A stretch of DNA of 14,092 nt from Clostridia bacterium (lineage in GTDB: Bacteria > Bacillota > Clostridia > Christensenellales > Aristaeellaceae), in assembly GCA_045599485.1 (NCBI GenBank), contig JAZRWA010000022.1, forward strand, positions 1-14,092, read 5' to 3'. Every line of letters begins with the position of its first letter. Position 1 is the stretch's first letter. The translations under genes and the position numbers were made by a program. Positions 1-13,417 of this stretch are shown piece by piece. The notes under the pieces were generated by a model. The model ran no database searches. It saw nothing but the letters and a program-made list of their open reading frames with translations, and had not been told where the DNA came from.

Positions 1-1
1 G

Positions 2-352
2 CGTCTGCTCAGGCGTGTGGTGCGTGACTATCTGACCCGCGGCGCCAGCCCCGAAAGGACGCTTTCCATGTGGAAGAGCGTACGCGCCGGCGAGGAGAAA
101 TGGATCTTCCCCTATCAGGAGCAGGCGGATGTGATCTTCAATACCGCTCTGCACTATGAACTGCCCGTGATGCGGCTGTACGCCTATGAGCTGCTGGAGA
201 AGATCACGCCCGATTTCAGTGAGTATTATCTGGCACGGGAGCTGGTGCGCATGCTCAATTATTTCCTGCCCATGCCCAGGGAAGCGCTGGAGGAGATCCC
301 GCCGCTTTCCATCCTGCGTGAGTTCATCGGCGGGAATACGTTTTACGAGTGA
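2..352 (+). CDS. Uridine/nucleoside kinase family protein, C-terminal fragment (5' end outside window)
   Basis: The frame is open from the window edge (RLLRRVVRDYLTRGASPERTLSMWKSVRAGEEKWIFPYQEQADVIFNTAL...ILREFIGGNTFYE). From memory this resembles the conserved C-terminal part of long uridine-kinase-like proteins of Clostridia. TGA stop at 350-352, followed by a hairpin terminator. Confidence 0.75.
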   Translation, partial: RLLRRVVRDYLTRGASPERTLSMWKSVRAGEEKWIFPYQEQADVIFNTALHYELPVMRLYAYELLEKITPDFSEYYLARELVRMLNYFLPMPREALEEIPPLSILREFIGGNTFYE

Positions 353-398
353 GAGGATGCACCTGAGAAAAGGAAGATTTTAACAGGACAAAACAAAA

Positions 399-447
399 CC
401 CTTGTCTGGAGGAAGTTCAACTTCCATCAGCACAAGGGTGTTTTATG
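399..447 (+). terminator. Rho-independent terminator candidate of the kinase-like gene
   Basis: Imperfect hairpin CCCTTGT (399-405) / ACAAGGG (432-438) with inner GGAAGT/ACTTCC pairing, followed by TGTTTTAT. It starts about 47 nt after the TGA. Confidence 0.6.
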
Positions 448-479
448 ATATAGATTGCCCTTTCTCGGAAGGGGTCAAA

Positions 480-524
480 GGGGGAACCATGCTTTCCGGC
501 TTGGGAAAGCGTGGTTCCCCCTTT
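480..524. terminator. Long perfect-ish hairpin between convergent genes (likely terminator of the minus-strand methyltransferase gene, possibly bidirectional)
   Basis: 18-bp stem GGGGGAACCATGCTTTCC (480-497) / GGAAAGCGTGGTTCCCCC (504-521) with one G-U pair and a 6-nt loop. A TTT run follows it on both strands. It lies about 15 nt downstream of the minus-strand TAA at 536-538. Confidence 0.6.
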
Positions 525-535
525 ATATACTCTCC

Positions 536-1339
536 TTACCGCCGTCCCAGCTGCCAGAAGGCCACAGCGCCGGCGGCAGCCACGTTCAGCGAATCCACCC
601 CGTGCGCCATGGGAATCAGCACGGTGTAATCACAGCCGCGGATGGTTTCCTCGCGCAGTCCGTTGCCTTCCGCCCCCAGCACCAGCGCCAGACGCTCCTA
701 TGCCATCAGCCGCGCGTCGTCCACGGCAATGGAACGCTTCGTCAGTGCCAATGCCGCCGAGGCAAAACCCAATGTCTTCAGCTCTCCCGCCACATCGTTG
801 GAGGGCAGGTACGCCCAAGGTACCTGAAAGACCGTGCCCATGCTGACACGTACGGCACGCCGGTGCAGCGGGTCACAGCAGGAGGGGCTCAGCAGCACCG
901 CCTCCATGCCCAGCGCGGCGGCGGAGCGGATCAGGGCGCCGATGTTGGTAGCGTCCGTCACGGCTTCCAGCACGGCGACGCGGCGCGCGCCCCGGCATGC
1001 CTCTCCGGCGGTGCGTTCGGGCGGCCGCTTCATCAGACAGCGGATGCAGCGGTCCGGCATGCAGCCGAGGATGTCGCCCAGCAGCGCATCGGGTCCGGTA
1101 TATACCGGTACGCTGTCATCACAGCGGGCCAAAGCCTCTGCCGCCTGCCCCGTGATGTGCTTTTTTTCCATCATAAAGGCCACGGGGGTGAGCCCCGCGT
1201 CCAGCGCGTGCAGCACCACTTTGCCGCTTTCCGCCATGAAAAGCGCTTCCCGGGGGCGCTGCAGGCTGCGCAGCTGCGCGTCGGTGCGCCGGAAGGGCTC
1301 CAGCTCCGGGGCGTTCGCATCCTTTACTTCAATGATCAT
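536..1339 (-). CDS. TrmH/SpoU family RNA 2'-O-methyltransferase, 267 codons if the in-frame TAG at complement(698..700) is decoded
   Basis: The track ORF 698..1339(-) ends ...SIAVDDARLMA at a TAG. The same frame continues ERLALVLGAEGNGLREETIRGCDYTVLIPMAHGVDSLNVAAAGAVAFWQLGRR to a TAA at 536-538. SpoU motif 1 (LEAVTDATNIGALIRSAAALG) is upstream of the TAG; motifs 2 and 3 (LVLGAEGNGL, IPM..GVDSLNVAAAGAVAFW) are downstream. GGAGG RBS at complement(1345..1349), 5 nt before the ATG. Confidence 0.85.
698..700 (-). other. In-frame TAG codon inside the TrmH-family gene (candidate sense/recoded UAG)
   Basis: Minus-strand reading ...CTG ATG GCA TAG GAG CGT CTG GCG CTG GTG CTG GGG GCG GAA GGC AAC... 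= L M A * E R L A L V L G A E G N. There is no frame change. Confidence 0.8.
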
Positions 1340-3779: not shown

Positions 3780-4742
3780 GTGAAAAAACGGATATCGACC
3801 TTTTTGCTGCTGATGCTGCTTGTGTCGCTGCTGTGCCCGGCGGTGCTGGCGGATGAGGTGATTCCCGCCCATGATAAGCACGAACGCCCCGAGATCGAGG
3901 GCATGGGGGAGGACGGTTTTCTGACACAGGCGGAGGCGGAATTTGTGCTGGCCGATGCAGAAGAAGGCCTGTGGATGTATGTCAGCGATGCCCTGCGCAT
4001 TGAAATTGACCGCTACACCGCCTCCAACCGCAAGCTGATCTGGTACACCGCGCACATATGGCAAAAGGAAGGGGACGGCATGCACACCTTCCTGGCCGAC
4101 CCGGCGCATCCCTTCGGTCTAGCGCTGCTGGTGGAGGAAATTGCCCGGCAGTATCAATTGGTGTTTGCCATCAATGGTGACTTTTTTGAGGATCGTTACC
4201 GTGAGGGCGAAAAGATCGGCTGCGTCATCAAAAACAAAGTGGTCATCAACCGCTATGCGCAGGAACTGGATAACCTGCCCACGCTGGATGTGCTGGCGCT
4301 GTTTGAGGACGGCACCATGAAATGCTTTAGGGCGCGCAGCAACAGCGCGGACAAATATCTGGCCATGGGCGTGCGCGACACCATCTGCTTCGGTCCCATT
4401 CTGGTGTCCGAGGGCAGCATCAATATGAAGCAGCTGGAGGAATACGGCCGCTCCCGCGAGCCGCGCACCGCGCTTGGCATGGTGGAAAACGGACATTATG
4501 TTGCCATCGTCTGCGAGGGACGCTCGGAGGAGAGCGACGGCCTGCGCCTGAGTGAGCTGGCCCCCCTGATGCAGGCGGAGGGCTGTGTGGAAGCGCTCAA
4601 CCTTGACGGCGGTCAGACCTCGGTCATCAGCTTTATGGGCGAAAAGCTCAATGCCACCGGTACCTTCCATAACAGCTCCAGACCGCGCCGCGTGACGGAT
4701 ATCGTGGGCATTGGCGTAAGCGATCTGGTTTCCGCCGAGTAA
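3780..4742 (+). CDS. Phosphodiester glycosidase family protein (NAGPA / DUF2233-like), exported, paralog 1
   Basis: 320 aa, GTG start 5 nt after GGGAGG (3769-3774). Signal peptide MKKRISTFLLLMLLVSLLCPAVLA/DE. Family-typical motifs: REPRTALG...GHYVAIVCEGR and EALNLDGGQTSV. TAA stop. Confidence 0.8.
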   Translation: MKKRISTFLLLMLLVSLLCPAVLADEVIPAHDKHERPEIEGMGEDGFLTQAEAEFVLADAEEGLWMYVSDALRIEIDRYTASNRKLIWYTAHIWQKEGDGMHTFLADPAHPFGLALLVEEIARQYQLVFAINGDFFEDRYREGEKIGCVIKNKVVINRYAQELDNLPTLDVLALFEDGTMKCFRARSNSADKYLAMGVRDTICFGPILVSEGSINMKQLEEYGRSREPRTALGMVENGHYVAIVCEGRSEESDGLRLSELAPLMQAEGCVEALNLDGGQTSVISFMGEKLNATGTFHNSSRPRRVTDIVGIGVSDLVSAE

Positions 4743-4766
4743 ACAACAGAGGAGAAAAACAACCAT

Positions 4767-5711
4767 ATGAAAAAAGCGCTGATGGCGCTGCTGCTTTTGC
4801 TTTCGGTGTGCGGCGGCGCGCTGGCGGATGTGCCGGTGAGAGCCAATGAGCCGTGTGCCCGCCCCGAGGTGGAAAACCTGGGGGAGGATGGCTATCTGAC
4901 CGAAACGGATGAGCTTGTGTTCATCGATGAAACGGCGGGACTGTGGTACTATGTCAGTGATGAGCTGCGCGTGGAGATCGACCGCTATACGGCCTCCGAC
5001 CGCAAGCTGATCTGGTATGTGGCGCATCTGTATCAGAAAACGCCCACTGGTCTGCGTACCGCGCTGGCAAATGAAAAAAAGCCCTACGATGACCGCATGT
5101 GGGTGTATGATCTGGCTGAGAGGGAAAAGATGGTCTTTGCCACCAACGGCGATTATTTTGCCACCCGTCTGGATGAATCCGCCGGTGTGGGCATCGTCAT
5201 CCGTCATGGACGGGTCATCAGCTCCAAGGGCAAAGCGAGCAGCAAGATCCCCACGCGGGAGATCATCGCCATGTATGAGGACGGCAGCATGAAGTGCTAT
5301 GGCGCCAACGAATACAAGGCGTCCTCTCTGGCGGAAGCCGGCGTGCGTGATACGCTGTGCTTTGGCCCCATTCTGGTACGGGATGGGCAGGTGGAGACCA
5401 AACGCCTGGACGAGATGGGCTCCTCCCGTGAGCCGCGGTGCGCTATCGGCATGGTGGAGCCCGGCCATTATGTGGCCATCCTGACGGAAGGCCGTACGGA
5501 TGACTCGATCGGCGCACGTCTTTTGACGCTGGGCGATATGATGGCGGCGGAGGGCTGTGTGGAGGCGCTGAACCTGGACGGCGGACAATCGGCTGTCATG
5601 TGCTTCATGGGCAAAAAGATCAGCTCCACCGGGCATACTTCCACCAGCACCCAGAGCCGCAAGATGACCGACATTGTCGGCATCGGCTACAGTGAACTTG
5701 TAGGACAGTGA
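4767..5711 (+). CDS. Phosphodiester glycosidase family protein (NAGPA / DUF2233-like), exported, paralog 2
   Basis: 314 aa. Signal peptide MKKALMALLLLLSVCGGALA/DV. Collinear with the upstream paralog (EIDRYTASDRKLIWYVAHLY, REPRCAIGMVEPGHYVAILTEGR, AEGCVEALNLDGGQSAV). TGA stop. Confidence 0.8.
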   Translation: MKKALMALLLLLSVCGGALADVPVRANEPCARPEVENLGEDGYLTETDELVFIDETAGLWYYVSDELRVEIDRYTASDRKLIWYVAHLYQKTPTGLRTALANEKKPYDDRMWVYDLAEREKMVFATNGDYFATRLDESAGVGIVIRHGRVISSKGKASSKIPTREIIAMYEDGSMKCYGANEYKASSLAEAGVRDTLCFGPILVRDGQVETKRLDEMGSSREPRCAIGMVEPGHYVAILTEGRTDDSIGARLLTLGDMMAAEGCVEALNLDGGQSAVMCFMGKKISSTGHTSTSTQSRKMTDIVGIGYSELVGQ

Positions 5712-5713
5712 AT

Positions 5714-6892
5714 ATGAAAAAAATGCTGATGTATGCCGTGCTGCTGCTGACGCTGCTGATGACGGCGGCGTGTGCAGAGACGGCGGCGGAGCGTACCGCC
5801 TCCTGCACATTCAAGCTGGGAAAAACGGCTTTGACACAGAAGGAACGCGGCAAGCTGCTGGACAGGGATTATTCCACCCATTATGATATCGCGAGCCGCA
5901 AAACACTGACCATCGAAAGCGAAAAGCAGCTGGGCGGCATGTACCTGCAGATCTTTGATGTGGTGCGCGCGCTGACCATGGAAGTGAAAACCAACGGCGA
6001 ATGGCAGGAGTACTGCGTCAATCCCCAGCATCTGAGCGACTGGTACGCTTTCCCGGATAAGACCACGGCAGTGCGCATTTACAACGCCGATAAGGAAAAC
6101 AAGCTCAAGCTGGCGGAAGTGACCCTGTACGGCCCCGGGGACAAGCCCGAAAAGGTACCGCAGTGGATCGATCTGGAGAAGTGCGACCTGATGCTTCTGG
6201 CGACGCATCCCGATGACGATCTGCTGTGGTTCGGCGGCCTGATGCCCACCTACGCGGGGGAAAGGGGCTACAAGGTGCAGGTGGTGTACATGGTGCCCAC
6301 CGGCGGACTGCGCAAGCTGGAAATGCTGGACGCCCTGTGGACCTGCGGCGTCACGGCTTATCCCGGCCTGCTCAATCTGCGCGACCAGCGCGGCAAAAAC
6401 CTCAGTGAGCAGTACTCCCTGTGGGGACAGAAGACCGTCACCACCAAGGTGGTGGAGGCCATCCGCCGCTATAAGCCGTAGGTGCTGGTCACGCATGGTC
6501 TGGGCGGTGAATACGGACACCCCGGTCATAAGGCCGCGGCGGATACCGTGACGCGCGCCGTCGGTTATGCCGCGGATAAAAGCAACCGCCCCGCCTCAGT
6601 GGAAAAGTACGGTGTGTGGCAGGTCAAAAAGGTCTATCTGCATGAGTACAGCAAAAATCAGATCGAGATGGACTGGCATGTGCCGTTGGAAGCCTTTGGC
6701 GGCAAGGACAGCCTGACCGTCGCGCAGGAGGCCATGCTCTGCCACGCCAGCCAGGTCAAGGGCGGCTGGATGGTGGAGGACCACGGCAAGCATGATAATA
6801 CGCTTTTCGGTCTTTACAGCACCACGGTGGGTGAGGACATCGAGAAGAATGATTTTATGGAAAATATCGTCCTGGAGAACAATACACCGTAA
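5714..6892 (+). CDS. PIG-L/LmbE family deacetylase with lipoprotein-type signal and extra N-terminal domain, 392 codons if the in-frame TAG at 6479..6481 is decoded
   Basis: Track ORFs 5708..6481 and 6482..6892 are contiguous in the same frame: ...VVEAIRRYKP * VLVTHGLGGEYGHPGHKAAA... The PIG-L motif LLATHPDDDLLWFGG is upstream of the TAG and the HP(G/D)H motif is downstream. The likely start is ATG 5714 (MKKMLMYAVLLLTLLMTAAC, lipobox-like); GTG 5708 is an alternative. TAA stop at 6890-6892. Confidence 0.8.
6479..6481 (+). other. In-frame TAG codon inside the PIG-L deacetylase gene (candidate sense/recoded UAG)
   Basis: TAT AAG CCG TAG GTG CTG GTC ACG CAT GGT = Y K P * V L V T H G. It sits inside the conserved 'R.xKP-x-VvvTH' stretch of the family. 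Confidence 0.8.
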
Positions 6893-6967: not shown

Positions 6968-6996
6968 TTGAAATTTTTTTCGGGAGAGTATATAAT
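6968..6996 (+). promoter_or_regulatory. Sigma-70/SigA-type promoter for the glycosyltransferase gene
   Basis: TTGAAA (6968-6973), 17-nt spacer, TATAAT (6991-6996), in an AT-rich intergenic region about 30 nt upstream of the ATG at 7027. Confidence 0.55.
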
Positions 6997-7026
6997 AGAA
7001 AAAAGACCGAAAAAAGGAGGTGCACG

Positions 7027-8298
7027 ATGGAACCAAGGATCAGAACAGCTTTGCTGAACGACTCTTTTCCGCCGCAGATCGACGGCGTGGCCAACGCGGT
7101 GATCAATTATGCCTCGCTGCTGCATGGCCGCGGGGATGATGTCATGGTGATCACGCCGGCCTATCCCGGTGTGGAGGATCATTATGATTATGAGGTGCTG
7201 CGCTATTCCAGTGTGGACACCACCAAGATCATCGGTTATCGTGCCGGTTACCCTTTTTCGGCTTCCGCTGTGCAGCGGGTGGTGGATTTTGCCCCTGATA
7301 TTCTGCACACGCATTGCCCCGTCTCTTCGCTGCTGATGGCCCGCGTGGTGCGGTAGAGGACCGGTGCGCCCATTGTGTTTACCTATCATACCAAGTTTGA
7401 TATCGATATCCGCACCGCCATCAAAAGCAAGGCACTGCAGGACAGCCTGATCCGCGCCATTCTGTGGAACATTGAGGGCGCCGATGAGGTATGGACGGTC
7501 AGCCGCGGCGCGGGAGAGAATCTGGAATCCATCGGCTATCAGGGCAAGTGGCGCGTGATGGACAACGGTGTTGATTTTGCCCGCGGTCACGCCTCGATGG
7601 AAAAACAGAACGAGATCAGCCGCCTGCATAACCTGACCGATCACGCACCGGTGTTTTTGTTTACCGGCCGTCTGCGCTGGTACAAGGGCATCCGCATCAT
7701 TCTTTAGGGTCTGGCCAAGGCCAAAGCCCGCGGCGCCAAGTTTCATATGCTGTTTGTGGGCGATGGCAGCGACCGCGGTGAGATCGAGGAGCTGGCGCAA
7801 AAGCTGGGGCTGACCGATCAATGCGTCTTTGTGGGCGCGGTGCAGGATCGTGAGCTGCTGCGGGCGTATTACAGCCGTGCCGATCTGTTCCTGTTCCCGT
7901 CTACCTTTGATACCAACGGCATCGTGGTGCGCGAGGCGGCCGCCTGCGGTCTGGGTGCCGTGCTGGTCAAGGGCAGCTGTGCCGCCGAGGGCATTACCGA
8001 TGGACAGAATGGCATCCTCATCGGTGAAAATGCCGACAGTCTGTGCGCGGCGGTGCTGTTTGCCTGCTCCCACCGCAATGAAGTGCGGCAGGTCGGCCTG
8101 CATGCGGAGAATGAGATCTATCTTTCCTGGGAGGATTCGGTGGCGCGGGCTCGTACCCGTTATGCCGAGCTGCTGGAGGAGCGCAAAGCAAACCCGCCGG
8201 AAAAGCGGCATGATGCCTTTCCTTTCCTGTCCGACATTGTGGAGGGCGCCGGCCGCCTGCAGCGGTGGCATCGCCTGCTGAACGCCAAGCTGAAGTGA
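7027..8298 (+). CDS. Family 4 (GT-B) glycosyltransferase, 423 codons if the two in-frame TAGs (7354..7356, 7705..7707) are decoded
   Basis: Track ORFs 6961..7356, 7375..7707 and 7747..8298 all share one frame. They read ...CPVSSLLMARVVR * RTGAPIVFTYHTKFDIDI... and ...GRLRWYKGIRIIL * GLAKAKARGAKFHMLFVGDGSD... The N-terminus is GT4-like (LNDSFPPQIDGVANAV). The C-terminal Glycos_transf_1-like domain has FPSTFDTNGIVVREAAACG. AAGGAGG at 7013-7019, ATG at 7027, TGA stop at 8296-8298. Confidence 0.85.
7354..7356 (+). other. In-frame TAG codon #1 inside the GT4 gene (candidate sense/recoded UAG)
   Basis: GTG GTG CGG TAG AGG ACC GGT GCG CCC ATT GTG TTT ACC TAT CAT = V V R * R T G A P I V F T Y H. No frame change. 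Confidence 0.8.
7705..7707 (+). other. In-frame TAG codon #2 inside the GT4 gene (candidate sense/recoded UAG)
   Basis: ATC ATT CTT TAG GGT CTG GCC AAG GCC AAA = I I L * G L A K A K. It lies in the 'KG(l/i)xxLlxAl' helix that opens the C-terminal Rossmann domain. Confidence 0.8.
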
Positions 8299-8328: not shown

Positions 8329-8361
8329 GCACCTTTTGCGATCGGGCAAAGGTGCTTTTTG
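8329..8361 (+). terminator. Rho-independent terminator of the glycosyltransferase gene
   Basis: GCACCTTTTGC (8329-8339) pairs with GCAAAGGTGC (8346-8355) with one bulged T, followed by TTTTTG. Confidence 0.8.
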
Positions 8362-8764: not shown

Positions 8765-8794
8765 TTGACATAATACGGTGTTTTATCCTATAAT
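8765..8794 (+). promoter_or_regulatory. Sigma-70/SigA-type promoter for prfC-typA
   Basis: TTGACA (8765-8770), 18-nt spacer, TATAAT (8789-8794). A small hairpin TGTGGC-AAC-GCCACA (8802-8816) sits just before the RBS GGAAGGAGGG. Confidence 0.65.
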
Positions 8795-8831
8795 AACTGA
8801 TTGTGGCAACGCCACAGGAAGGAGGGCACTT

Positions 8832-10421
8832 ATGCTCGCAGAGGAAGTAGCCCGCAGAAGAACATTTGCTATTATCTCCCATCCCGACGCCGGCAAAACC
8901 ACATTGACCGAAAAACTGCTGCTGTACGGCGGCGCCATCCGCCAGGCCGGTTCCGTCAAGGCCCGCAAGGCAGAACGCCACGCGACCAGCGACTGGATGG
9001 AGATCGAAAAGCAGCGCGGCATCTCCGTTACCTCCAGTGCCATGCAGTTCTCCTTCAACGGTTTTGATATCAACATTCTCGATACCCCCGGCCATCAGGA
9101 CTTTTCCGAGGATACCTACCGCGTGCTGGTGGCAGCGGACAGCGCTGTGATGCTCATCGACGCCGCCAAGGGCGTGGAGGAGCAGACCATCAAGCTGTTC
9201 AAGGTGTGCCGTATGCGCGGCATTCCGATTTTTACCTTTGTCAACAAGATGGACCGTGCCGCCAAGGATCCCTTCGCCCTGATGGACGAACTGGAAAACG
9301 TGCTTGGCATCCACGCCTGCCCCATCAACTGGCCCATTGGCACCGACGGCGATTTTCAGGGCGTGTATCACCGTGATACCCGCATGATCGAATTGTATTC
9401 CGGCGGCGATCACGGCAAGAACAAGGCGCAGAAGACCGATGTTTCTCTGGACGATCCCGACCTGGGAACGCTGCTGGAAAAGCACTACATCAACCGCCTG
9501 AATGACGAGATCGAGCTGCTGGACGAGGCCGGCGACGATTTTGATCTGGAGGCCGTGCGCGAAGGCAGGCTGACCCCCATGTTCTTTGGCAGCGCCGTCA
9601 CCAACTTCGGTGTGGAGCCTTTCCTGGAGCGGTTCCTGTCCTACACCACGCCGCCCCTGCCCCGCGAGAGCAATGAGGGCTGGGTGCAGCCCGATGATGA
9701 ACGCTTCAGCGGCTTCATCTTCAAAATTCAGGCCAACATGAACCCCGCCCACCGTGACCGTCTGGCCTTCCTGCGCATCGTCAGCGGCCAGTTCACCAAA
9801 GGCATGACGGTGTGGCATTCCGGCACCGGCAAGGAGATCCAGGTCAAGCAGCCGCAGCAGTTTATGGCAGATGAGCGTGAAGGCATCGAAACGGCCTGGC
9901 CCGGCGATATCATCGGTCTGTTCGATCCCGGTATTTATCATCTGGGCGACACGCTGTGCGTGGGCCGCAAGATCCGCTTCCAGAAGATCCCCGTGTTTGC
10001 GCCCGAGCATTTTGCCCGTGTGCGTCCGCTGGATTCGATGAAGCGCAAGCAGTTTGTCAAGGGCATCATGCAGCTGAGCGAGGAAGGCGCCATCCAGACC
10101 TTCCGCCGCACCGAGACCGGCATTGAGGATTTCCTTGTCGGCGTGGTCGGTGTGCTGCAGTTTGATGTGCTGACCTACCGCCTCAAGAGTGAGTACGGTG
10201 TCGATCTGGTACTGGAGCAGTTGCCCTTCCGCTATGTGCGTTGGGTGACCGCCACCGAGATCCCCGTGCCCGACCTGAAGCTGACCAGCACCTCCGGCCG
10301 TGCTTTTGACGCCGAGGAGCGGGATGTACTGCTGTTTGAAAACGAGTGGAGCATCCGTCTGGCACAGGAAAACAACAAGGGCCTGGAGCTGGCCGAACTG
10401 GCTCCCCGCGAGATCTACTGA
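8832..10421 (+). CDS. prfC: Peptide chain release factor 3 (RF3), translational GTPase
   Basis: 529 aa starting MLAEEVARRRTFAIISHPDAGKTTLTEKLLLYGGAIRQAGSVKARK...DWMEIEKQRGISVTSS...DTPGHQDF..NKMDR. This is the characteristic RF3 N-terminus with G motifs, and the length is RF3-like. ATG 8832 lies 5 nt after GGAAGGAGGG. TGA stop at 10419-10421. Confidence 0.9.
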   Translation: MLAEEVARRRTFAIISHPDAGKTTLTEKLLLYGGAIRQAGSVKARKAERHATSDWMEIEKQRGISVTSSAMQFSFNGFDINILDTPGHQDFSEDTYRVLVAADSAVMLIDAAKGVEEQTIKLFKVCRMRGIPIFTFVNKMDRAAKDPFALMDELENVLGIHACPINWPIGTDGDFQGVYHRDTRMIELYSGGDHGKNKAQKTDVSLDDPDLGTLLEKHYINRLNDEIELLDEAGDDFDLEAVREGRLTPMFFGSAVTNFGVEPFLERFLSYTTPPLPRESNEGWVQPDDERFSGFIFKIQANMNPAHRDRLAFLRIVSGQFTKGMTVWHSGTGKEIQVKQPQQFMADEREGIETAWPGDIIGLFDPGIYHLGDTLCVGRKIRFQKIPVFAPEHFARVRPLDSMKRKQFVKGIMQLSEEGAIQTFRRTETGIEDFLVGVVGVLQFDVLTYRLKSEYGVDLVLEQLPFRYVRWVTATEIPVPDLKLTSTSGRAFDAEERDVLLFENEWSIRLAQENNKGLELAELAPREIY

Positions 10422-10439: not shown

Positions 10440-12266
10440 ATGATTCGTTCTGATATCCGCAACATTGCGATTATCGCCCACGTTGACCACGGCAAGACCT
10501 CCCTGGTCAACGAAATGCTCAAGCAGGGCGGCGTTTTCCGTGCCAATCAGGAGGTGGCTGACCGCGTCATGGACTCCAACGATCTGGAGCGCGAGCGCGG
10601 CATCACCATTCTGTCCAAAAACACGGCGGTGCACTACGGCGATGTCAAGATCAACATCGTCGACACCCCCGGCCACGCCGACTTTGGCGGCGAGGTGGAG
10701 CGCGTGCTCAAAATGGTGGACGGCGTGCTGCTGCTGGTGGACAGCTTTGAAGGTCCCATGCCGCAGACCCGCTTCGTGCTGTCCAAGGCGCTGGCGCTGA
10801 ACCTGCCCGTGCTGATCTGCATCAACAAGATCGACCGTCCCGACGCCCGCTGCGGCGAGGTGGTGGACGAGATCCTCGATCTGCTGATCGACCTGAACGC
10901 CGATCCCGAAACGCTGGAGCGCCCCATCCTGTATGCTTCTGCCCGCAAGGGTACCTGTACGCTGGATCTGGAGCAGCCCGGCACCGACCTGCGTCCGCTG
11001 TTTGAAGCCATCCTCAAGTACATTCCCGCCCCCGAGGGCGAGATGGATGGCCCTGCGCAGGTGCTGATCTCCACCATTGACTACAGCGAATACGTGGGCC
11101 GTATCGGCATCGGCCGCATCAGCCGCGGCAGCCTGAGATCCGGTCAGATGGTGGTGCGCTGCAACTATCTGGATGACAAGGTGACGCCCCCGTGGCGCTT
11201 GACCGAGCTGAGCACCTTTGACGGCCTCAAGCGTATCCCGACCGATCAGATGGCCATGGGCGATATCGTGGCGCTGACGGGTCTGCAGGATATCAGCATC
11301 GGTGATACGGTGTGTCAGCCCGATACGGTGGAGCCCCTGCCCTTTGTGACCATCAGCGAGCCCACGGTGACCATGACCTTCTCGGTCAACGATTCGCCCT
11401 TTGCCGGCCGCGAAGGCCAGTTTGTGACGAGCCGTCACCTGCGTGCCCGTCTCTATCGTGAACTGCAGACCGATATGTCCCTGCGCGTCAAGGACGGCGA
11501 AACGCCCGATTGCTTTGAGGTGTGCGGACGCGGTGAGCTGCATCTGTCCATTCTGATCGAGACCATGCGCCGTCAGGGCTATGAGTTCCAGGTGTCCAAA
11601 CCCGAGGTCATCTACAAGGAGATCGACGGCGTATCCTGCGAGCCCATTGAGCGCATGGTGGCGGATGTGCCCTCCGCTTATGCCGGCGCCGTCATCGAAA
11701 AGATCGGCCGCCGCCGCGGCACGCTGGAAAGCATGGACGGCACCGACCGTGTGCGCCTGGAGTTCCTGGTGCCCAGCCGCGGACTGTTTGGCTACCGCAG
11801 TGAGTTTTTGACCGATACCCGCGGCGAAGGCGTGATGAGCTCGGTATTTGAAAAGTACGAGCCCTTCCGCGGCGACATTCCGCACCGCGCTGTGGGCGCC
11901 CTGATCGTGCACGAAACGGGCGAGACCACGACCTATGGTCTGTTCTACGCGCAGGAGCGCGGCACGCTGTTCATGGGCAATCAGGTGCCTGTGTACGCCG
12001 GTCAGATCTGCGGCGCAAGCAGCCGCCCCGGCGATATCCCCGTCAATGTTTGCCGCAAAAAGCATGTCAACAACATCCGCAACAGCTCTGCCGCCGAAGA
12101 CAGCATGCGCCTGGTCAGCGTGCATCCGCTGACGCTGGAGGAGTGCCTGGAGTTTATCGACAGCGATGAGCTGCTTGAGATCACGCCCAAGACCCTGCGC
12201 ATGCGCAAGCGTGTGCTGAGCCATGAGCAGCGCATGAAGAACGCTGCCCGCGGCATCAAGTGCTGA
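10440..12266 (+). CDS. typA: Translational GTPase TypA/BipA
   Basis: 608 aa. [24 protein letters not shown]..., [37 protein letters not shown], and a C-terminal BipA-type domain. TGA stop. Confidence 0.92.
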
Positions 12267-13382: not shown

Positions 13383-13417
13383 AGAGGAAGAGGAGCAATC
13401 CTTTTCCTCTTTTTTTC
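13383..13417 (+). terminator. Rho-independent terminator of rplS
   Basis: AGAGGAAGAGGA (13383-13394), GCAA loop, TCCTTTTCCTCT (13399-13410). 12-bp stem with one G-U pair, followed by TTTTTTC. Confidence 0.85.

Follow-up and report, generated by a model that had tools for sequence, protein, structure and literature searches.

A gene for a GT4 glycosyltransferase from an uncultured horse-gut lineage of Clostridia, known only from metagenomes, is interrupted by two in-frame TAG codons. Is this a gene that has ceased to function, or is UAG read as an amino acid in this organism, and if so, as which one? We have examined these questions in the whole stretch of DNA on which the gene lies (the window), a contig of 14,092 nt with ten complete genes and 3826 codons, and in the sequences of its relatives. 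The interpretation that we prefer, at a probability of about three in four, is that UAG has been reassigned to glutamate throughout the lineage and that, as part of this, the GT4 gene is a working one. The tRNA and the fate of RF1 in such a reassignment are inferred.

The GT4 Gene Contains Two In-Frame TAG Codons

The GT4 gene extends from position 7027 to 8298 on the forward strand (423 codons, ATG to TGA), and is intact if TAG is a sense codon. Translation of this frame gave exactly two internal stops, both TAG and 351 nt apart, as an earlier note on this DNA had stated. They fall at codon 110 (7354–7356, +) and codon 227 (7705–7707, +). With X placed at these sites, the protein matches Pfam Glyco_transf_4 (PF13439) over residues 18–186, scoring 85.3 bits (cutoff, 28.5), and Glycos_transf_1 (PF00534) over residues 195–351, scoring 94.8 bits (cutoff, 26.4); each domain spans one TAG. 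The GT4 sequence motifs quoted in the earlier note are all present. The C-terminal domain contains a D-x7-E motif, FPSTFDTNGIVVREAAACG, located 3′ of both TAG codons and unchanged in the closest outgroup, L088, which is JGI contig Ga0207380_12799764. A motif of the EX7E type is a hallmark of the GT4 family, and FPSTFDTNGIVVREAAACG is a conservative variant of it. The surrounding region is catalytic and essential-looking.

The signals for expression that had been described for this gene were also found. A scan identified a sigma-70-like promoter, TTGAAA-17-TATAAT, at 6968–6996 (+), matching the consensus at 11 of 12 positions, and an intrinsic-terminator-like hairpin followed by a run of T at 8333–8352 (+), past the TGA. 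A Shine-Dalgarno sequence, AAGGAGGTG, can be read off at 7014–7022 (+), 4 nt 5′ of the ATG. Comparison with the NCBIfam equivalogs provided no named enzyme, all the best matches being far under cutoff (83 bits against 400 for alpha-monoglucosyldiacylglycerol synthase and 75 against 274 for BshA), and the substrate is unassigned.

In-Frame TAG Codons Occur in Four Genes of the Window

The TAG codons had been presented as a property of one gene. That view proved too narrow, since three further genes in the window carry an in-frame TAG. The ten complete genes contain five in-frame TAG codons, with no TAA and no TGA, distributed over the genes for GT4, a SpoU/TrmH RNA methyltransferase, a PucR-type regulator and a PIG-L deacetylase. 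We attribute them to the code of the organism as a whole, and not to GT4 alone.

The PIG-L/LmbE-type deacetylase gene (5714–6892, +; 392 codons, including a signal peptide) has its TAG at codon 256 (6479–6481, +), in the sequence KP*VLVTHG and within the Pfam PIG-L match at residues 160–282. The TAG of the SpoU/TrmH gene (536–1339, −; 267 codons) is at codon 214 (698–700, −); it is spanned by the Pfam SpoU_methylase match (residues 121–261), and the motifs LVLGAEGNGL and VDSLNVAAA come after it. In the PucR-type regulator (1488–2537, +; 349 codons) the TAG at codon 113 (1824–1826, +) is upstream of both Pfam domains, HTH_30 and GGDEF_2. The highly expressed genes of the window, namely typA, prfC, rplS and that for an S41 peptidase, are free of TAG.

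The TAG-bearing genes adjoin prfC, typA, rplS and a tRNA-Ser gene, a chromosomal housekeeping setting. The GC content of the organism is about 58%, and the gene neighborhood is normal in appearance.

TAG and Glutamate Codons Alternate within the Lineage

The lineage was sampled through at least six independent assemblies sharing 88%–97% DNA identity, the sample having been enlarged through PIG-L, SpoU and rplS proteins clustered at 90% identity. The contigs were taken from NCBI MAGs (L001 and L090), from ENA (L087 and L173) and from Logan (L089 and L172). The assemblies include GCA_024404275.1 (Horse_feces223) and GCA_024500545.1 from NCBI, ERZ27247129 and ERZ27247123 from ENA, and SRR27361835 and SRR21150819 from Logan. 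In all, some 30 kb of lineage DNA was reached. Exact matching with typA and a SpoU fragment from the window yielded nothing further, and a scan of metagenome contigs with GT4 gave a closest match of no more than 65%.

The earlier note had raised the question of whether orthologs in the same clade also carry TAG. At GT4 codon 110 they do. This codon is TAG in all five lineage assemblies that cover the site (the window, L001, L087, L089 and L173, drawn from the window's NCBI contig, GCA_024404275.1, ERZ27247129 and ERZ27247123 in ENA, and SRR27361835 in Logan), and is GAG in the outgroup L088. The value of dS is 0.3–0.8 among members of the lineage, and about 0.5 between the window and the contigs that share this TAG; because the sharers have diverged to this extent, the TAG must be old.

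The remaining TAG codons of the window correspond to sense codons in the relatives. GT4 codon 227 is GAA in L001, L087 and L089 and GAG in L088. PIG-L codon 256 is an aspartate codon (GAT or GAC) in L001, L087 and L089, and GAG in L088. PucR codon 113 is GAG in L090 and L089, and glutamate in L172 as judged from the translation. SpoU codon 214 is GAA in L090 and L089, and encodes lysine in L172. There are also three positions where the window has a glutamate codon and a relative has TAG. SpoU codon 68 (1136–1138, −), GAG in the window, is TAG in L089 and L172; SpoU codon 230 (650–652, −), again GAG, corresponds to TAG in L089 and to CAG in L090; and codon 162 (4263–4265, +) of an NAGPA-like gene at 3780–4742, GAA in the window, is TAG in the sisters L001 and L087. 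Eight TAG sites have thus been mapped over the lineage, and for each of them a glutamate codon, GAG or GAA, is found in one or more of the close relatives or in L088. Glutamine is found in a relative at just one of the eight (SpoU-230, in L090).

Might the TAG codons have been created by errors of sequencing, assembly or binning? The evidence consists entirely of short contigs assembled from metagenomes, for an organism of low abundance and without data at the level of reads. Such errors would have to have generated the same TAG at GT4 codon 110 in five assemblies, made with different pipelines from different samples, the flanking DNA of which varies by 3%–12%. Other TAG codons are common to subsets of contigs that match their relatedness. 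An artefactual origin is hardly credible.

The next relatives, L081–L086 (typA 86%–88%) and L091 (SpoU 67%), have whole genes without TAG recoding. A genuine TAG terminator is present in L085, and another in L091.

TAG-Bearing Genes Are under Purifying Selection

Comparison of GT4 with the sister species gave dN/dS = 0.037, with values of 0.011, 0.044 and 0.043 for its three segments, the last of these being downstream of the second TAG. This upholds the view of the earlier note that GT4 is not a fresh pseudogene. The outcome that would have refuted it, intact sister genes together with relaxed selection on the copy in the window, was not observed. The other genes are also constrained, both as a whole and downstream of their TAG: dN/dS is 0.155 and 0.083, respectively, for PIG-L, 0.12 and 0.043 for SpoU, and 0.07–0.09 and 0.056 for PucR. 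Over all TAG-bearing genes the range is 0.04–0.18, and 0.04–0.08 downstream of the TAG codons. No in-frame stop was found in any of 159 distant GT4 orthologs.

These values bear directly on the possibility of genome decay, in which the genes with TAG would be pseudogenes and a mutational preference for G to T might have produced TAG from GAG. Every TAG is a single G-to-T step from GAG, and public annotation lists the genes concerned as fragments (P0123, 255 aa; P0370, 136 aa; P0242, 213 aa). In L173, a contig of 1.6 kb, a conserved glycine of PIG-L is replaced by an in-frame TGA (GGx to TGA, again of the G-to-T type). This is the one exception to the absence of other in-frame stops, and it means that the material of this lineage is not free from real nonsense mutations or errors of assembly. 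The selection analysis nevertheless contradicts this explanation, low dN/dS being retained in every TAG-bearing gene, downstream parts included. Moreover, the TAG at GT4 codon 110 predates the divergence of the lineage members, yet none of the five assemblies has a frameshift, TAA or TGA in GT4. A G-to-T bias would also be expected to convert GAA to TAA, and the window contains 113 GAA codons compared with 164 GAG; yet there is no TAA in the approximately 13,000 codons surveyed. Under a model of random nonsense mutation the probability that all eight stops would be TAG is 1%–3%, and that all eight would derive from GAG is about 1e-7. Gene decay is very improbable as the origin of the TAG codons.

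Glutamate Is the Most Likely Amino Acid at UAG

Solved structures were too distant to serve as a guide to the TAG columns, giving His for PIG-L, Thr or Ser for SpoU, and Ala, Gln or Arg for GT4. Deep alignments of homologs were used in their place. The column at GT4-110 contains glutamate in 111 of 160 distant orthologs, and the earlier suggestion that this is a variable Lys/Arg/Glu position does not hold. The accompanying suggestion that the second site falls on a Glu/Asp position does, the column at GT4-227 having 127 Asp and 22 Glu among the 160. Glutamate predominates at PIG-L-256 (100 of 119 homologs, with Asp in 13), SpoU-214 (106/119) and SpoU-68 (74/119), and the column at SpoU-230 is variable. 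The TAG codons sit at glutamate positions, and are translated through.

Not every column is Glu. Counter-evidence to a uniform assignment comes from GT4-227, which is mostly Asp in the distant orthologs, from PIG-L-256, which is Asp in the sisters, from the variable SpoU-230, and from a TAG in an island on contig L175, which aligns to Q, S or N of distant paralogs. For the six deep columns taken together, the log10 likelihood is −2.6 for Glu, −6.4 for Asp, −9.0 for Ala and −12.1 for Gln. Glutamate is most likely the amino acid at UAG, an assignment that depends on alignments alone, with no peptide data.

We have also to consider that UAG is a sense codon for something other than Glu, whether Gln, pyrrolysine, known from certain archaea and bacteria, or Asp, its link with Glu arising only from GAG-to-TAG being the most easily tolerated mutation. 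Natural reassignments of UAG in prokaryotic systems do go to Gln in phages, according to PMC10879173, and to Pyl in archaea (bioRxiv 10.1101/2024.09.30.615893). Asp and Gln also have local support, from the Asp at GT4-227 and PIG-L-256 and the Gln at SpoU-230 in L090 noted above. If TAG encoded Gln, however, the dominant change should be the CAG-to-TAG transition, and with 104 CAG codons available in the window Gln would not be confined to a single site in eight. The likelihoods favor Glu by a factor of 10^3.8 over Asp and 10^9.4 over Gln. Four of the sites are on columns with 62%–89% Glu, where the bulky Pyl would be out of place, and the sequence reached contains no methylamine methyltransferase or pyl gene, although this is weak evidence from only some 30 kb. 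Another amino acid at UAG is improbable, and we retain glutamate.

tRNA Genes and Termination Codons

Searches with ARAGORN and Rfam, also at a permissive threshold, revealed no tRNA with the anticodon CUA in the window and the 17 lineage contigs (~30 kb); the tRNAs in this DNA are tRNA-Ser(GCU) and tRNA-Ser(UGA) only. Conservation of the prfC gene for RF3, which lies in the window (dN/dS 0.02), is uninformative on the fate of RF1.

Twelve genes of the window terminate with TGA (eight genes) or TAA (four genes), and none with TAG. The relatives use TAG as terminator in about 8% of genes (7/77, 1/17, 1/9 and 0/18), so that approximately one would be expected in the window, and its absence is not significant in itself. 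For this reason we rejected the lack of TAG terminators as evidence for recoding.

That lack, being statistically uninformative, allows for ambiguous decoding of UAG, in which an efficient natural amber suppressor inserts Glu while RF1 is kept and some genes end at TAG, generating a mixture of full-length and truncated proteins that is possibly regulatory. The TAG codons are rare and absent from highly expressed genes, as if read-through were costly or incomplete, and ambiguous use of amber codons is documented in Pyl-encoding archaea (PMC12626013). This has to be set against the location of the constrained DX7E region of GT4 (dN/dS 0.043) behind two successive TAG codons, where partial suppression would give a yield that is the product of two inefficiencies. 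New TAG codons have arisen on different branches, implying that they are close to neutral. The codons also lack the shared context that programmed read-through needs: no common context or read-through signal was found around them, the base that follows being A, G, G, A, G or C, with dissimilar flanks. We judge ambiguity to be unlikely, without dismissing it, and reassignment to glutamate remains the better interpretation.

A Possible Mechanism

Reassignment of UAG to Glu could come about as follows. A single G-to-T change would convert GAG to TAG, and once the code had altered such a change would be synonymous. This would account for the low frequency of TAG, which is thinly scattered through ordinary genes (five per 3826 codons, or about 2% of Glu codons) and is gained and lost between sister genomes in the manner of other synonymous variants. 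Decoding would require a Glu-charged tRNA with the anticodon CUA, inferred and not seen, which might have been derived from tRNA-Glu(CUC) or tRNA-Gln(CUG) by one change in the anticodon. Position 36 of the anticodon is an identity element for the GluRS of E. coli, so that attaching Glu to a tRNA with the anticodon CUA is no simple matter. The charging enzyme here might be a non-discriminating GluRS, as is typical of Firmicutes that lack GlnRS, an enzyme that already accepts varied bases at position 36. RF1 is inferred to have been lost, or to have ceased competing at this codon. With so few genes ending in TAG in the relatives (about 8%), its capture would have cost little.

Comparison with Known Genetic Codes

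To our knowledge, the natural stop reassignments accepted in bacteria are all of UGA, and UAG has otherwise been seen as a sense codon only in phages (Gln), archaea (Pyl) and some eukaryotes. The literature searched contained no earlier account of a bacterium in which UAG is a sense codon or specifies Glu. It is probable that the lineage has an undescribed bacterial code, carried by uncultured Clostridia of horse and other herbivore gut metagenomes, where UAG specifies Glu and only UAA and UGA terminate. It would be the first cellular prokaryote in which amber has been assigned to one of the canonical amino acids, and the change would be a recent one, bracketed by nearest relatives that still use TAG stops.

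The bacterial stop reassignments listed in the literature searched involve UGA only (PMC8629427; bioRxiv 10.64898/2026.05.24.727570; PMC13462651). UGA is read as Trp (table 4) in Mycoplasmatales, several endosymbionts and, as recently found, Eggerthellaceae, and as Gly (table 25) in Absconditabacteria and Gracilibacteria. These are likewise lineage-wide conversions of stop to sense in a bacterium, with one type of stop in frame in conserved genes and aligning to one amino acid. They concern UGA and RF2, however, whereas in the present lineage the codon is UAG, normally the province of RF1, and the amino acid Glu. With its GC content and its normal gene neighborhood, the lineage is also unlike the reduced, AT-rich symbionts.

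In gut phages with recoded TAG, UAG is again sense in the gut ecosystem, with scattered in-frame TAG codons. The accounts of them (PMC10879173; bioRxiv 10.1101/2021.08.26.457843) describe a viral code switch in standard-code hosts, with insertion of Gln by a phage suppressor tRNA. The TAG codons studied here are in chromosomal housekeeping genes and align to Glu rather than Gln. Recoding of the phage type, UAG to Gln, was considered and rejected, the TAG columns not aligning to Gln.

The all-TAG pyrrolysine code of archaea (Kivenson et al., bioRxiv 10.1101/2024.09.30.615893) is a genome-wide sense use of UAG in a prokaryote, but one found in Archaea, employing a non-canonical amino acid and requiring pyl genes, where the present lineage aligns to Glu. 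In eukaryotes there are codes with UAR as Glu, in peritrich ciliates (table 30) and Blastocrithidia nonstop (PMC12153298), and their existence indicates that a UAG-reading tRNA that accepts Glu is workable. These codes recode UAA too and depend on changes to eRF1, in contrast to the lineage, where only TAG is recoded and TAA ends 4 of the 12 window genes. Laboratory amber suppressors and RF1-deleted recoded E. coli also have UAG read by a suppressor tRNA, as sense without competition from RF1. Those strains are engineered or the result of a single mutation, whereas in the lineage TAG codons have accumulated in the wild and exchanged with GAG and GAA over a dS of about 0.5.

A genome-wide sense use of UAG is hard to detect, since coding density barely falls (gTranslate preprint). 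Splitting of genes at TAG in public MAG annotation, which we see for GT4, PIG-L and SpoU, lowers estimates of quality and corrupts protein databases. If our reading is true, the tables of bacterial codes would gain a further one, from a free-living, GC-rich gut bacterium, and RF1-dependent termination would be shown to be dispensable under natural conditions. The lineage would also be a recent instance from which to reconstruct codon capture, from an initially sparse use of TAG stops through the new tRNA to what became of RF1. The host should be protected from phages and mobile elements that follow the standard code and terminate genes at TAG. A natural system that inserts Glu at UAG would be of use in engineering the genetic code.

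Further support for the reassignment comes from a separate low-GC island, which follows rplS in some strains (L175 and L181). On the lineage contig L181 the island has two in-frame TAG codons within a PG_binding_1 domain. A scan of viral contigs with the TAG-bearing PG_binding open reading frame of the low-GC island gave distant matches only. The first TAG of the L181 island aligns to E, D, E, D and E in five solved structures.

Two In-Frame TAG Codons in a GT4 Glycosyltransferase Gene

The GT4 glycosyltransferase gene (7027-8298, forward strand) has an ATG start and a TGA end. Translation revealed exactly two internal stops, both TAG and, as the earlier note had reported, 351 nt apart, at codons 110 (7354-7356) and 227 (7705-7707), with no third. 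The GT-B domains proposed there were recovered by Pfam when the TAG sites were entered as X: PF13439, the N-terminal GT4 domain, covers residues 18-186, and PF00534, at the C-terminal end, covers residues 195-351. Their scores are far over cutoff, and each domain extends across one TAG. The gene's own signals, accurately described in the earlier note, were also located, comprising a promoter-like site (6968-6996), a Shine-Dalgarno sequence (7014-7022) and a terminator hairpin (8333-8352).

The encoded enzyme is a cytoplasmic glycosyltransferase of generic GT4 (GT-B) type. It reaches no NCBIfam equivalog and most closely resembles GT4 enzymes of glycolipid and thiol pathways. Its neighbors encode secreted envelope-related proteins (a PIG-L deacetylase, two NAGPA-like proteins and an S41 protease), from which one may reasonably guess, as yet without a test, that it helps to make cell-envelope glycoconjugates. 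The NAGPA-like (phosphodiester glycosidase) genes are tandem paralogues with signal peptides (3780-5711), placed between the S41 peptidase and the secreted PIG-L deacetylase in a cell-envelope cluster adjoining the GT4 gene.

TAG Codons in Other Genes of the Window

In-frame TAG is not confined to the GT4 gene. Reading TAG as sense fuses three further ORF pairs into full-length proteins: a SpoU/TrmH methyltransferase (536-1339, reverse strand; TAG at 698-700), a PucR-type regulator (1488-2537; TAG at 1824-1826) and the PIG-L deacetylase (5714-6892; TAG at 6479-6481, in the context KP*VLVTHG...GHPGH). The SpoU and PIG-L TAGs fall within Pfam domains, and the SpoU motifs LVLGAEGNGL and VDSLNVAAA both lie downstream of its TAG. 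Over ten complete genes (3826 codons) the in-frame stops are five TAG, with no TAA or TGA. Twelve genes are terminated by TGA (eight) or TAA (four), and none by TAG. This last absence is not significant, because TAG makes up only ~8% of stops in related Clostridia (0/18 in contig L081, 1/17 in L085, 1/9 in L091 and 7/77 at the GT4 orthologue loci L002-L080).

Public protein sets contain the PIG-L and SpoU proteins cut at the TAG (P0123, 255 aa, and P0370, 136 aa, for PIG-L; P0242, 213 aa, for SpoU), and the GT4 of relatives is annotated as two pieces of 109 and 307 aa. Since these entries are fragments ending at TAG, standard-code annotation of the lineage's MAGs is systematically wrong.

The remainder of the window is ordinary chromosome, carrying the S41 peptidase, the two NAGPA-like genes, tRNA-Ser(GCU), tRNA-Ser(UGA), prfC, typA, a YhhN-family gene and rplS. 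The GTG that is mechanically listed as the prfC start (8778) is overlapped by a promoter-like site, a perfect TTGACA-18-TATAAT (8765-8794, within 8765-8832); the 529-aa RF3 of relatives fits an ATG ~18 codons downstream (MLAEEV...). If begun at GTG 12260, the YhhN-family gene would share its first 7 nt with the end of typA (12260-12266). In some relatives gene callers settle on a shorter version, of 174-202 aa.

Distribution of the TAG Codons within the Lineage

The window belongs to a rare lineage: its typA shares a 90% cluster with one MAG only, Horse_feces223 (GCA_024404275.1). Further pieces were collected by way of protein clusters, namely contigs L001 and L090 from that MAG, L087 and L173 from ENA, and L089 and L172 from Logan. 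Their nucleotide identity with the window, or among themselves, is 88-97%. The rplS gene (ribosomal protein L19; 13015-13365) is intact with a TAA stop, and its protein is 100% identical between window and sister species. The gene is present on 14 short contigs, which derive from at least 10 sequencing runs (at least 9 beyond the other lineage pieces); the lineage is accordingly widespread, though its abundance is low.

The earlier note had asked whether orthologues in the same clade also carry TAG. At GT4 codon 110 they do, in 5/5 assemblies covering the codon. The other TAGs follow sub-clades. Among mapped lineage members GT4-227, PIG-L-256, PucR-113 and SpoU-214 are TAG in the window only, NAGPA1-162 in L001 and L087, SpoU-68 in L089 and L172, and SpoU-230 in L089 alone. 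This distribution, with one TAG common to 5/5 assemblies and the others confined to sub-clades, excludes a sequencing artefact, and artefact in general is scarcely credible. It shows that TAGs have been repeatedly gained, or lost, within the lineage. Separately, the L089, L172 and L090 contigs all stop ~30 nt beyond the SpoU stop, near 505, whereas window 1-535 carries on into a nucleoside-kinase-like gene, of which it has the 3′ end (2-352, TGA); this points to a repeat or variable junction there.

Selection on the TAG-Bearing Genes

The window and its sister species differ with dS of 0.3-0.8; dN/dS is nevertheless low. For GT4 it is 0.037 overall, and 0.011, 0.044 and 0.043 in the TAG-delimited segments. 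The values for PIG-L are 0.155 (0.083 after its TAG), for SpoU 0.12 (0.043 after), for PucR 0.07-0.09 (0.056 after) and for the NAGPA-like gene with a TAG in the sister 0.069. The DX7E catalytic-region motif of GT4 lies downstream of both TAGs and is unaltered even in the outgroup. It follows from these observations that full-length proteins are made.

The GT4-110 TAG is older than the divergence of window and sister. A gene dead for such a span would be expected to have dN/dS near 1 and mixed lesions. The view that the TAG-bearing genes are pseudogenes is thus very unlikely, with dN/dS low also downstream of the TAGs, and the contention that GT4 is no fresh pseudogene is upheld. The only non-TAG in-frame stop in the lineage, one event against ~13,000 surveyed codons, is a TGA at a conserved Gly of the PIG-L orthologue (SLW*QKT; 544-546 of L173, ENA ERZ27247123 k141_869763). 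This 1.6-kb contig retains the GT4-110 TAG, and TGA is the main terminator here; the TGA is either a real strain-level knockout or an assembly error.

The Amino Acid Inferred for UAG

GAG or GAA is found in at least one close relative at 8/8 mapped TAG sites. The closest intact outgroup, the JGI contig L088 (72% amino-acid identity in GT4, same gene order), has GAG at GT4-110, GT4-227 and PIG-L-256. In deep alignments Glu occupies 106/119 positions at SpoU-214, 100/119 at PIG-L-256, 111/160 at GT4-110 and 74/119 at SpoU-68; GT4-227 is mostly Asp (127/160, with Glu 22/160), and SpoU-230 is variable. In a simple column model the log10 likelihood was highest for Glu (−2.6), ahead of Asp (−6.4), Ala (−9.0) and Gln (−12.1). 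If TAG is Glu, GAG-to-TAG is the sole synonymous single-step route into TAG, matching the route seen; if nonsense mutations struck at random, given the codon usage here, 8/8 events at GAG would have a probability of ~1e-7.

UAG might be sense with a different amino acid, which we consider unlikely. Were it Gln, the CAG-to-TAG transition should dominate, and it does not despite 104 CAG codons. Two columns favor Asp, which stays possible at those sites taken by themselves. The comparisons show UAG as translated, at Glu positions, the residue being deduced from alignment without peptide data. We put the probability of a lineage-wide reading of UAG as Glu at roughly three in four.

A Possible Mechanism and Comparison with Known Codes

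Reading UAG as Glu would require a tRNA with anticodon CUA charged with Glu. The ~30 kb of lineage DNA covered here contains two tRNA-Ser genes only and no UAG-decoding tRNA. A single substitution of anticodon base 36, in either tRNA-Glu(CUC) or tRNA-Gln(CUG), would yield such a tRNA. Many Firmicutes lack GlnRS, and a non-discriminating GluRS charges both tRNA-Glu (C36) and tRNA-Gln (G36). This enzyme may accept A36 unchanged, and a tRNA without GatCAB determinants would retain its Glu. RF1 is only presumed to have been lost or out-competed; ambiguous UAG, with suppressor and RF1 coexisting, is the main rival, albeit an improbable one. Scarce TAG stops are a plausible precondition for codon capture and would lower its cost.

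A targeted literature search found no report of UAG as Glu in bacteria. Reviews and screens to mid-2026 describe bacterial code changes at UGA only (PMC8629427; bioRxiv 10.64898/2026.05.24.727570; PMC13462651; bioRxiv 10.1101/2024.09.30.615893), the last stating that "three are known in Bacteria". In its working the proposed change resembles tables 4 and 25, in which bacteria have reassigned UGA, but it would concern the other release-factor domain. The codon is shared with TAG-recoded phages, where the inferred amino acid is Gln, and with the archaeal all-TAG-as-Pyl code. The pairing of UAG with Glu is common only to some eukaryotic nuclear codes.

A Low-GC Island Downstream of rplS

In two strains, represented by the rplS-bearing contigs L175 and L181, synteny with the window stops just past rplS (window ~13413-13416), followed by a low-GC (34-38%) island (L175:870-2632; L181:815-1628) with an HTH_XRE gene, a lipoprotein paralogue and a PG_binding_1 protein. 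Its ORFs contain 2-3 in-frame TAGs each, and the island is possibly a mobile element, either adapted to the UAG-sense code or tied to it. Two TAGs fall in the PG_binding_1 domain of L181; five solved homologues have E, D, E, D and E at the first and A, E, A, E and Q at the second, which provides one independent check, again by alignment, on the putative residue.
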